From contig CAZMCU010000003.1 in the NCBI GenBank assembly GCA_964564915.1, forward strand, positions 2,676 to 66,675: a stretch of 64,000 nt of DNA, in the 5' to 3' direction. This document shows, piece by piece, positions 47,860 through 49,873 of the stretch (its first letter is position 1; each line of letters opens with the position of its first letter). The notes below the pieces were generated by a model, which worked only from the letters and a program-made list of their open reading frames with translations, was not told the origin of the DNA and made no database searches. The translations under genes and the position numbers were made by a program. The DNA is from an uncultured Demequinaceae bacterium (lineage in GTDB: Bacteria > Actinomycetota > Actinomycetes > Actinomycetales > Demequinaceae).

Positions 47860-49605
47860 CTAGTCGTCGCTGGTGCCGTTCGGCGTTGTCTTGGCGACCT
47901 GAAGGAGGAACTCGACGTTGGTCTTGTTCTCCTTGAGCTTCTGGAGCACGAGCTCGATCGCTTGCTGTTGGTCGAGGGCGGACAGCACCCGACGAAGCTT
48001 CCAGGCGATCTTGAGTTCGTCGGCGGGAAGGAGGATCTCCTCGCGACGCGTACCGGAGGCATCGACGTCGACGGCGGGGAAGATGCGCTTGTCCGCGAGC
48101 GAACGGCTGAGCTTGAGCTCCATGTTGCCGGTGCCCTTGAACTCCTCGAAAATGACCTCGTCCGCCTTCGATCCCGTCTCGACCAGGGCGGTCGCGAGGA
48201 TCGTCAGGGACCCACCGTGCTCGATGTTCCGCGCCGCGCCAAAGAAGCGCTTGGGCGGGTAGAGCGCGGACGAGTCGACACCACCGGACAGGATGCGGCC
48301 CGATGCCGGCGCGCTGATGTTGTAGGCGCGCCCAAGGCGGGTGATCGAGTCGAGGAGGATGACGACGTCCTTGCCCATCTCGACGAGACGCTTGGCGCGC
48401 TCGATTGCGAGTTCGGCGATGGCTGTGTGGTCGGTCGCGGGGCGGTCGAACGTCGAAGCGACAACCTCTCCCTTGACCGTCCGCTGCATGTCGGTGACCT
48501 CTTCCGGCCGCTCGTCGACCAGGACGACCATGAGGTGAACCTCGGGGTTGTTCGTCGTGATGGCGTTCGCGATGGCCTGGAGCACCAGGGTCTTTCCGGC
48601 CTTCGGCGGCGAGACGATGAGGCCACGCTGGCCCTTGCCGATCGGGGCGACCAAATCGATGACACGAGTCGTCATGACGTTGGGCGTCGTCTCGAGGCGC
48701 AACCGCTCTTGCGGGTACAGCGGTGTGAGATCGCCGAAGAGGACCCTGTTGTGAGCCTCCTCGAGCGAGACGCCGTTGATGGTCTCGACGCGCACGAGGG
48801 CGTTGAACTTCTGCCGCTGGCCGCGCTCTCCCGGGCGGGGTGGGCGTACGGCACCGGTAATCGCGTCTCCCCTGCGGAGCCCGTACTTCCTCACCTGGTT
48901 GGTGGAGACGTAGACGTCCGCCTTGCCCGGAAGATAACCGGACGTCCGGATGAACGCGTAGTTCTCGACGATGTCGACGAGCCCACCGACGGGGGTCAAC
49001 TCCTCGCCTTCGCGGACCTCGTCGTCCTCGCGCTCGTCGCCCATGTCCTGGCCGTCCGAACGCATGGGACGCTCGCGGTCGCGGCCCCGGCCACGGCCCC
49101 GGCGTCTGCGGGAGTTGCGATCGTCGCCTCCCTGGCCACCGCCTTGCTGGCCACCGCCTTGCTGGCCGCCGCCCTGCTGGTTGCCGCCCTGCTGGTTGCC
49201 GCCCTGTTGGTTGCCGCCTTGTTGGTTGCCACCTTGTTGGTTGCCACCGGACTCCCCACTCGCCGCGCTCGCGACGGCCTGGCGGGCCCTCTGGGCACGG
49301 GAGTCGCCGGAGTTGCCCGAACCCCCGGAGCCACTCGAGTCTCCCGACGGGGTGGTGTCACTGGTCGAAGCGTTACCACTAGTCTGCGCGGAGTCCCCGG
49401 AGTTGCCGGAGTCCGCGCTCTGCTCGGCACGAGCGGGAGACACAACCCCGCCGCTTTGGATGGCGTCCACGAGATCGCCCTTCTTCATGTTTGAGGTACC
49501 CGAGACCCCGAGTTCAGACGCGAGGGCCTGGAGTTGGGGAAGCTTCATGGCACTGAGGGATACCGCGGCGTTTGCGCCACCGGCCGCCTCGTTCTGTTCC
49601 GTCAC
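47860..49605 (-). CDS. rho: transcription termination factor Rho with long low-complexity insertion
   Basis: N-terminus [18 protein letters not shown]. Walker [13 protein letters not shown]-terminal ATPase core [12 protein letters not shown]...[16 protein letters not shown] at 49605 is preceded by AAAGGA. Confidence 0.93.
49126..49248 (-). repeat. eight tandem 15-bp units inside rho encoding (GGNQQ)x5 (GGGQQ)x3
   Basis: Plus-strand units are ctgctggttgccgcc / ctgttggttgccgcc / ttgttggttgccacc / ttgctggccaccgcc. They are in frame, with synonymous or near-synonymous variation. Confidence 0.9.
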
Positions 49606-49873
49606 ACTTATCCTTTCGTCGCACGGGCCTCTGGGGTCCTCGGTGCGAGACGTCCACGGGTGCGCGGTATGCGTCACAGCAACGTCAGAAAAGACGCGCT
49701 CCTCGTGGATTGCTTCCGGATTGTCGATGCGCCCTCGAGGGCGGATCCTCCTGGAATGCGCAACCACCATACCACTACGCGGTGTCAACCCCCAACACGC
49801 GTGGGGGGACGCACACCCCTGCGCGCTGGCGGTGCACGAGTGCCGAAACGCGTATAGAACCGGCACTCCAGCA
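49606..49873 (-). promoter_or_regulatory. long untranslated region upstream of rho (about 290 nt) with several GC hairpins
   Basis: I accept no ORF here. Contains the palindrome GCCCTCGAGGGC (49731-49742) and the hairpin CCCCCA-N7-TGGGGG (49789-49807). Confidence 0.35.

Follow-up and report, generated by a model that had tools for sequence, protein, structure and literature searches.

A variable-length, in-frame 15-bp minisatellite in the insertion domain of an actinobacterial Rho

Insertions in Rho proteins currently serve as bacterial models for the study of disordered regions in RNA capture and phase separation. In Actinomycetota, the insertion is arranged in the order APA-QN-RxR-EDDV, with a variable linker first, and its QN module recurs at the inter-domain position across this and other phyla (PMC11347177, 2024). 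The experimentally studied members of this type are the Rho proteins of M. luteus, M. tuberculosis, and M. smegmatis. Mycobacterial Rho carries "repeats of NDQG" followed by RxR and EDDV, and its additional disordered regions are required for condensation and form droplets in vitro on their own (bioRxiv 10.1101/2025.08.28.672908). The insertion of M. tuberculosis Rho is disordered and required for Rut-site selection on structured RNA (PMC13650167).

An Asn-rich prion-forming segment has been described in Clostridium botulinum Rho (Pallares et al. 2015; Yuan and Hochschild 2017, both as cited in PMC11347177). The Rho of Bacteroides thetaiotaomicron (BtRho) has a prion-like subdomain (PLD) whose length and sequence are not conserved, whereas its charged motifs are, and this subdomain alone is insufficient for RNA-driven condensation (Krypotou et al., PMC13269538). 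Short tandem repeats in the disordered regions of Rho have already been described as well, with 14 copies of YQSRGD in Clostridium symbiosum and five of RNYQD in Blautia obeum (Schumbera, Mier et al. 2023, PMC10284900). The precedents on which the original prediction for the present locus had drawn, namely the actinobacterial insertions, the C. botulinum prion-like segment, and phase-separating disordered regions, are all to be found in the literature (PMC8828861, PMC11347177, PMC13269538).

Here, we analyzed a 64,000-nt stretch of DNA (the window) that contains the rho gene of a small, high-GC actinobacterium, probably a member of the Demequinaceae; rho is present as a single copy in a genome of 1.67 Mb. 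The product gave a full-length match to TIGR00767 (637.5 bits; cut-off, 509.45), contains the Pfam domains PF07498, PF07497, and PF00006 in this order, and has an intact Walker A sequence. Its GTG start codon is preceded by AAGGA 5 nt upstream, and the same start position is used by the Rho protein of a sister species (P0009). We preferred this start over those given by JGI 55 codons upstream (P0006 and P0008), because a Shine-Dalgarno sequence is present and the position agrees with the starts of homologues; calls from the upstream starts reach into the leader and are probably too long. Antisense and alternative-frame open reading frames that cross the tandem array listed in Table 1 were dismissed as high-GC artefacts, because Rho fully explains the frame.

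Table 1. Features of the rho locus, in window coordinates
Feature	Residues	Position	Strand	Description
rho coding sequence		47860..49605	minus	581 aa + stop, GTG start
Rho_N helix bundle, PF07498	17-49	49459..49557	minus	Pfam E = 1.5e-9
Insertion domain (NID)	50-206	48988..49458	minus	gap between Pfam Rho_N and Rho_RNA_bind
Conserved basic motif (RAQRARQAV element)	102-118	49252..49302	minus	immediately upstream of array
15-bp in-frame tandem array	120-160	49126..49248	minus	(GGNQQ)5 (GGGQQ)2 GGGQG G
Arg-rich RxR box	161-179	49069..49125	minus	directly after array
Acidic EDDV motif	190-204	48994..49038	minus	abuts RNA-binding domain
Rho RNA-binding (CSD-like) domain, PF07497	207-281	48763..48987	minus	Pfam E = 1.2e-24
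RecA-type ATPase domain, PF00006	313-517	48055..48669	minus	Pfam E = 2.5e-26

Because Rho_N ends at residue 49 and the RNA-binding domain starts at residue 207, the insertion comprises 157 aa. By these Pfam boundaries, the predicted hydrophilic insertion of ~150 aa beside an Arg-rich box is indeed present, and its length lies above the minimum of at least 25 aa used to define Type 2 Rho (PMC11347177). The insertion contains 39 Gly, 21 Gln, 21 Ser, 17 Arg, and 13 Asp residues and carries a net charge of −5, and this composition (25% Gly, no aromatic residue) is consistent with disorder. Structure prediction with AF2 returned a pLDDT of ~30 over most of the insertion and no secondary structure at residues 117-195, but the whole model was poor (mean pLDDT 49.9, from a 10-sequence alignment), so that the low pLDDT of the array lends disorder weak support. 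A weak helix was predicted at residues 98-115 in the same poor model (pLDDT ~54).

Within the insertion, the basic motif, the Arg-rich box, and the acidic motif are conserved, and the spacer between them is hypervariable. The basic motif is kept as [DE]RA(x)RA(K/Q)(E/Q)AV throughout the genus and family. The Arg-rich box had been described as RGG-like. An RGG/RG box, as Thandapani et al. are said to have defined it in 2013, consists of three RGG or three RG repeats 0-4 residues apart. The box contains RG-RG-RG (RGRGRG) and falls under the tri-RG form of this definition; it has no RGG triplet and is therefore an RG/RxR box, not an RGG box. Among the parsed family members and relatives, nearly all have this box in their Rho. 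R167-R169, R171, R173, and R175 are invariant in our alignment A2, and the box appears to correspond to the RxR motif of PMC11347177. The acidic motif, which is invariant among cluster members and conserved in alignment A2, likewise appears to correspond to the Actinomycetota EDDV motif of that study. The order of a central QN module, RxR, and EDDV ahead of the RNA-binding domain was recovered by eye and by alignment, with the three modules at residues 120-160, 166-179, and 191-203, respectively. Judged from sequence, the architecture is not unusual, being the published QN-RxR-EDDV layout of Actinomycetota Rho, and the insertion fits the pattern of short conserved charge-dense motifs set within composition-biased regions of variable length (cf. 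PMC13269538).

The array itself is an in-frame 15-bp minisatellite, far beyond what chance would produce. The original prediction had read it as a strictly periodic (GGNQQ)5(GGGQQ)3 at 49126-49248. The coordinates and the count of eight units hold, as does the periodicity at the GGxQQ level; the eighth unit, however, is a degenerate GGGQG (CAG GGA) and not GGGQQ, and therefore the protein sequence of the array is not strictly perfect. In the DNA, its eight units are spelled in six different ways. TRF identified a period of 15 across 49125-49245 (scores 121-123) as the top tandem repeat in the window, and the array is among the dozen or so highest-scoring tandem-repeat loci of the genome. Its 41 residues comprise 51% Gly and 49% Gln/Asn, with no aromatic or aliphatic residue, and no other stretch reaches at least 14 Gln/Asn per 40 aa among all open frames of at least 150 aa in the genome.

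We compared six alleles of one species that are 96-100% identical outside the array, the variant ones all taken from short-read metagenome contigs. The array has eight units in the window, L114, and L115, nine in L111, six in L112, and five in L113. L112 and L113 show no differences over the 1623 nt outside the array, yet they are one unit apart; the window and L111 have two differences over 1623 nt and are also one unit apart. The unit gained or lost was always an exact copy of an adjacent unit. Units of the array are gained or lost at a higher rate than point substitutions accumulate in the rest of the gene, and the predicted copy-number variation between strains is borne out by these near-identical alleles. 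With a unit length that is a multiple of 3 and whole-unit differences between near-identical alleles, the array is a coding VNTR. A metagenome scan with the 30-nt conserved flank returned three contigs, two of which were already known; the other (L116) is cut within the array.

Whole-unit variation extends beyond this species. In two unrelated Rho clusters, GG[GNS]QQ arrays likewise vary by whole 5-aa units (array-bearing cluster lengths of 603/608/559 aa and 611/591/616 aa), in support of the claim that the repeat is prone to slippage. Three Rho clusters without long arrays had 0 gap columns, so that length variation was present in 3/3 array-bearing clusters versus 0/3 array-less ones. More broadly, repeats of at least three copies occur in 67 of the 95 parsed Rho insertions, almost all of them actinobacterial, and the commonest repeat period is 5. 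As their sequences indicate, sister species carry a different repeat or none at the array position: in P0009, GGQGGSQGGSDRS-type repeats lie between these conserved flanks; in congeners, the site holds GGNS repeats or lacks a repeat, and one congener carries SDRQG repeats further upstream.

By analogy with other Rho proteins, we consider it reasonably probable that the array represents the variable QN module within a disordered insertion, acting as a slippage-resized, uncharged spacer that would position the Arg-rich RNA-binding box and may influence condensation driven by RNA. Whole units would be gained or lost through replication slippage or unequal recombination, and the 15-bp period would keep the single-copy gene in frame, Rho being essential in the species tested. 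The encoded segment would be a Gly-rich, flexible polar spacer that is constrained in composition but not in sequence or exact length, and it could set the reach or spacing of the Arg-rich box relative to the hexamer. In experimentally studied Rho proteins, the Arg-rich box helps to capture structured GC-rich transcripts, and the box here may do the same. The spacer would modulate, and not drive, RNA-dependent condensation, if the prion-like subdomain of Bacteroides Rho is a guide. We infer the spacer, RNA-capture, and condensation roles alike by analogy with these proteins.

It is very unlikely that the differences in array length are assembly artefacts in which a short repeat collapsed or expanded while its true length is equal in all strains. 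Every variant allele is a short-read metagenome contig, and the L116 contig breaks inside the array, indicating that assemblers do struggle there. The complete array nevertheless spans 78-138 nt and fits one read, and the longest exactly repeated word per allele, at 22-37 nt, is shorter than the final k that common assemblers use; assemblies with k of at least 39 should therefore not miscount units. The 8-unit form was assembled three times independently, and unit differences accompany lineage-specific synonymous unit spellings. Whole-unit variation in the two further Rho lineages, with none in the three repeat-poor ones, also speaks against an artefact. Real length differences could still be without consequence. 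The array would then be a neutral by-product of slippage, a tolerated hydrophilic filler that leaves Rho function unaffected, whatever its length and whether or not it is present, an explanation that we regard as unlikely though with an appreciable chance of being correct. The spacer between the conserved motifs ranges from ~14 to 46 aa across the genus, which would fit a neutral, tolerated linker equally well; two congeners have no repeat there, and arrays have been replaced between sister species. Nearly identical GGNQQ arrays in two unrelated non-Rho proteins, P0011 and P0016, are what would be expected of a generic slippage-prone sequence. On the other hand, the spacer stays rich in Gly, Gln, Asn, and Ser in every congener (in some with scattered Asp, Arg, and Glu as well), the QN module turns up repeatedly at this site in Actinomycetota and other phyla (PMC11347177), and deletion studies of M. 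tuberculosis, M. smegmatis, and B. thetaiotaomicron have found Rho insertions as a whole to be functional. CAA makes up 7 of the 15 Gln codons of the array compared with ~27% genome-wide, which fits unit amplification; the excess is not significant, and we dropped it as evidence.

The array had also been considered prion-like in composition. In its full form, this explanation would make it a prion-forming domain like the Asn-rich segment of C. botulinum Rho, giving rise to heritable low-activity aggregation, with copy number setting the switching frequency; we find this highly improbable. In its favor, the array is nearly half Gln/Asn, a density found nowhere else among the frames surveyed, and the number of oligopeptide repeats affects propagation in yeast prions. 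The Michelitsch-Weissman criterion, however, asks for a Gln/Asn density of at least 30 per 80 residues, and the insertion reaches at most 24 in 80 residues (with maxima of 23 per 60 and 20 per 40). The default core of PLAAC is ~60 aa, and the array is shorter. A score from our own PAPA-like implementation, indicative only, was 0.019 for the top 41-aa window and −0.047 on averaging; the PAPA threshold is 0.05. By such simple computed measures, the prion reading falls short. The abundance of glycine, the lack of aromatic and aliphatic residues, and the dense charge on both sides of the array argue in the same direction. According to PMC11347177, the published prion-like segment belongs to Rho as well and occupies this inter-domain position, but the C. 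botulinum segment that was tested measures ~70 aa and further predicted ones 62-95 aa, compared with 41 aa here. Moreover, a QN motif is not sufficient, and a B. fragilis Rho with such a motif did not aggregate (PMC11347177). The array is probably not a self-propagating prion domain.

With a copy number that differs between near-identical strains, the array cleanly illustrates a type of Rho variation already published; it is not a demonstrated prion. Published comparisons of Rho insertions are between species, whereas the alleles described here are natural and near-isogenic. This natural series of 5, 6, 8, and 9 units beside a conserved Arg-rich box provides a test of the effects of spacer length on RNA binding, termination, and condensation. 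If length proves irrelevant, the case documents free remodelling by slippage of the presumably disordered linker of an essential protein; either outcome leaves current views of Rho standing. That length variation might tune termination genome-wide, as originally suggested, is pure speculation. A stronger version, which we hold to be improbable, is that unit number works as a dial, heritable and fast-mutating, that adjusts an essential global regulator, and that it arose convergently in the Rho lineages that bear GGxQQ. Were this true, the saturation concentration at which RNA drives condensation, or else how far the Arg-rich box reaches, would vary among alleles of 5 to 9 units, and slippage would continually yield subpopulations with different genome-wide termination stringency. 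The locus would then be of the contingency type, acting via an intrinsically disordered region and not via an on/off frameshift.

Set against the known systems, the array shares with the C. botulinum segment its richness in Gln/Asn and its place in the same inter-domain insertion of Rho, but, by the description in PMC11347177, it is shorter than the segment tested there (41 versus ~70 aa), half glycine, and dominated by Gln instead of Asn. The PLD of BtRho and the array are both Gln/Asn-rich, lie beside conserved charge-dense motifs, and are associated with a positively charged motif, and in both the composition is conserved and the length and sequence are not. The PLD, however, is 68 aa, Asn/Gln-rich, and without a regular repeat, whereas the array is regular; condensation of BtRho is driven by a 176-aa Lys/Glu-rich subdomain that is absent from the Rho described here.

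The repeats reported in PMC10284900 and the array are independent tandem duplications of 5-6-aa units in the inter-domain region of Rho, which is disordered in those proteins and probably so here. The units in that study contain Tyr, Arg, and Asp ("stickers" and charge), and GGNQQ contains none of these; that study compares species, without copy-number differences between near-identical strains, whereas the array has such differences. Like other coding VNTRs, the array is in frame (15 bp), consists of near-identical units, and gains or loses whole units between near-identical alleles. Unlike the usual ones, it lies in an essential global regulator and not in a surface or host-interaction protein, and it alters length only and cannot switch the gene off.

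The published Actinomycetota Rho proteins carry their insertion at this place as well, between Rho_N and the RNA-binding domain, and have the same module order, with an S/A/P-rich variable linker, a Gln/Asn-rich centre, an Arg-rich box, and EDDV. The insertion here may share their disorder. The insertion here differs in being short and in possessing an extra conserved basic element (RAQRARQAV) upstream of the array, and its QN module is a nearly pure, uncharged array of eight Gly/Gln/Asn pentapeptides, whereas most relatives have charged Asp/Arg/Gln/Asn repeats.

The minus-strand gene whose features are collected in the table encodes a bona fide Rho, which matches TIGR00767 with 637.5 bits (cut-off 509) and is present in a single copy in the genome (1.67 Mb, 97.7% complete). 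Between Rho_N and the RNA-binding domain lies an insertion of 157 residues that has no domain match, contains 39 G, 21 Q, 21 S, 17 R, and 13 D, and lacks aromatic residues. The JGI gene calls of the same gene (P0006 and P0008; MVVAHSRRIRP...) start 55 codons further upstream (window 49606-49770), within a leader of ~290 nt. We consider that start less likely than the GTG at 49605, because the latter has a Shine-Dalgarno sequence and agrees with the N-termini of homologues.

Features of the rho gene and its product, in window and protein coordinates
Feature	Window	Rho residues	Strand	Remarks
rho CDS	47860-49605		minus	581 aa, GTG start, AAGGA 5 nt upstream
Rho_N		17-49	minus	Pfam
Basic motif	49252-49302	102-118	minus	conserved in an otherwise hypervariable insertion; also in the relatives' Rho L091, L096, and L097
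Repeat array	49126-49248	120-160	minus	GGNQQ x5, GGGQQ x2, GGGQG, G
RxR box		161-179	minus	Arg-rich, directly after the array
EDDV motif		190-204	minus	acidic
Rho_RNA_bind		207-281	minus	Pfam
ATPase domain		313-517	minus	Pfam

The original prediction had described a (GGNQQ)5(GGGQQ)3 array in this insertion. Reading the repeat from the translation confirmed its coordinates exactly, together with the five GGNQQ and two GGGQQ units; the third GGGQQ is GGGQG, a small correction. TRF gives it a period of 15 and scores of 121-123; no array in the window does better, and genome-wide it belongs to roughly the twelve highest-scoring repeat loci. When the genome's open frames of at least 150 aa are considered, no other segment reaches 14 Q/N per 40 aa. 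Elsewhere in this genome (G000), the strongest tandem repeats are a 66/198-bp array of ~10 copies (C27:693-1394) and a 15-bp array, AAGAAGCCxGCxGCC (KKPAA-type; C14:23444-23605).

The 90%-identity cluster of the window Rho has seven members, whose protein lengths differ by multiples of five. We read the arrays unit by unit from the DNA of near-identical metagenomic alleles and counted differences over the 1623 nt outside the array. Compared with the 8 units of the window allele, L114 and L115 also have 8 units (2 and 4 differences, respectively), L111 has 9 (2 differences), and L112 and L113 have 6 and 5 (62 differences each). The extra unit of L111 is an exact additional copy of GGCGGCAACCAACAG, and L112 and L113 show 0 differences from each other outside the array, yet L113 is one GGTGGCGGCCAGCAG short; array length changes therefore outpace point substitutions in rho. 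The array gains or loses whole units in every case, each duplicated from an identical neighbor or deleted next to one, and the predicted slippage-prone variation in copy number was thus borne out by the 5, 6, 8, and 9 units found. In the second lineage (L112/L113), the units follow a gradient from N (AAC) through S (AGC) to G (GGC) along the array.

Rho was matched in 30 of 30 related genomes searched, with the insertion in every full-length gene recovered. Three motifs are kept across genus and family: the basic [DE]RAxRA(K/Q)(E/Q)AV, the Arg-rich RxR box, and the EDDV motif, which directly precedes the RNA-binding domain. The charged flanks of the array are conserved, and the stretch from the basic motif to the RxR box is hypervariable (~14 to 46 aa): it holds GGNQQ-type units in the window genome (GGNQQ x8), GGQGGSQGGSDRS-type repeats in the sister species (P0009), GGNS repeats in two congeners, and no repeat in two others. 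AF2 weakly predicts a helix at the basic motif, which is duplicated in L091 (AEDRARRAKEAV... twice). Another congener (L084/P0020) carries 8 tandem SDRQ(G/S) pentapeptides upstream of the basic motif and none from there to the RxR box; the insertion thus has more than one site where an array can arise. Of 95 Rho insertions parsed, nearly all of them actinobacterial, 67 contain short peptide repeats of at least three copies, most commonly with period 5. Among these 95, only Kineococcus clearly exceeds the window's copy number (12 copies), and one Nocardioidaceae MAG (8.6) is comparable.

A database search with the insertion alone as query revealed GG[GNS]QQ arrays in the insertions of the unrelated Rho proteins P0012 and P0018, and in the N-terminal "initial" region of P0019, apparently a non-actinobacterial Rho. 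In the P0018 cluster (603, 608, and 559 aa) and the P0019 cluster (611, 591, and 616 aa), the array is longer or shorter by entire 5-aa units from member to member, whereas the P0021, P0013, and P0010 Rho clusters, without long perfect arrays, have zero gap columns in their alignments. Length variation was seen in 3/3 array-bearing clusters versus 0/3 of the others, a small sample with a clean control. From species to species the array is exchanged for other sequences, and it has arisen convergently more than once. Two non-Rho proteins, P0011 (826 aa) and P0016 (421 aa), one from a low-GC organism, contain an almost identical (GGNQQ)6-8 array; GGNQQ minisatellites therefore arise convergently across proteins and taxa.

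All six alleles come from short-read assemblies, and a further contig, L116 (Ga0315535_1021673, positions 2761-2810), stops in the first repeat unit, 20 nt past the conserved flank, an assembly break at the array that would fit an artefactual origin of the length differences. However, the complete array (78-138 nt) is short enough for a single read, its longest exactly repeated word is just 22-37 nt, and the 8-unit form was assembled independently three times, which argues against an artefact. The array is an in-frame minisatellite inside a probably disordered insertion. It would be resized by replication slippage or unequal exchange, with selection probably retaining just an uncharged, flexible, polar composition; the resulting spacer would fix the reach and spacing of the Arg-rich RNA-binding box and may modulate RNA-dependent condensation without driving it. 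We favor this mechanism as a whole with some confidence; its structural and evolutionary part is very probable, and its functional part, drawn by analogy, is tentative. The main rival, that the array is neutral, tolerated filler, appears rather unlikely.

Simple criteria did not support the prion or phase-separation interpretation of the original prediction. The classic threshold is 30 Q/N per 80 residues, and the maximum here is 24; a PAPA-like score, indicative only, was 0.019 versus a threshold of 0.05. The array comprises only 41 aa (51% Gly, 49% Q/N, no hydrophobic or aromatic residues), with a +10/-4 box and an acidic segment as its flanks, whereas the segment in Clostridium botulinum Rho and others predicted to be prion-like span 62-95 aa (PMC11347177). 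A true prion domain is very improbable on these grounds. By analogy, Rho could plausibly condense with RNA via the Arg-rich box, and the G/Q/N array would then act as a spacer or a modulator.

The insertion has exactly the Actinomycetota layout of Moreira et al. (2024; PMC11347177), APA, QN, RxR, and then EDDV; the basic motif is absent from these four named motifs. That study predicted disorder and droplet formation, with prion-like windows in a minority, and warned that a QN motif is insufficient for prion behavior. A 2025 preprint from the same group (bioRxiv 10.1101/2025.08.28.672908) describes mycobacterial "repeats of NDQG, then RxR and EDDV" and IDR-dependent condensation of Mycobacterium smegmatis Rho. 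In M. tuberculosis Rho, selection of structured Rut sites requires the insertion, which is disordered (Do et al. 2026; PMC13650167). The Bacteroides Rho prion-like subdomain conserves composition but neither length nor sequence, short charge-dense motifs are conserved in that Rho, and the subdomain alone did not yield RNA-driven condensation (Krypotou et al. 2026; PMC13269538). Schumbera et al. (2023; PMC10284900) had already noted that disordered regions of Rho from other species contain short tandem repeats. The literature searched yielded no mention of copy-number polymorphism between strains in a Rho array; a hint of strain-level length difference comes from insertions of 107 aa in M. tuberculosis variant africanum (bioRxiv 10.1101/2025.08.28.672908) versus +152 aa in H37Rv (PMC11347177). 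The array is thus real and neatly exemplifies a type of Rho variation already known, with an already published architecture. Its one modest addition is a natural allelic series of 5, 6, 8, and 9 units, a behavior that two further Rho lineages repeat.
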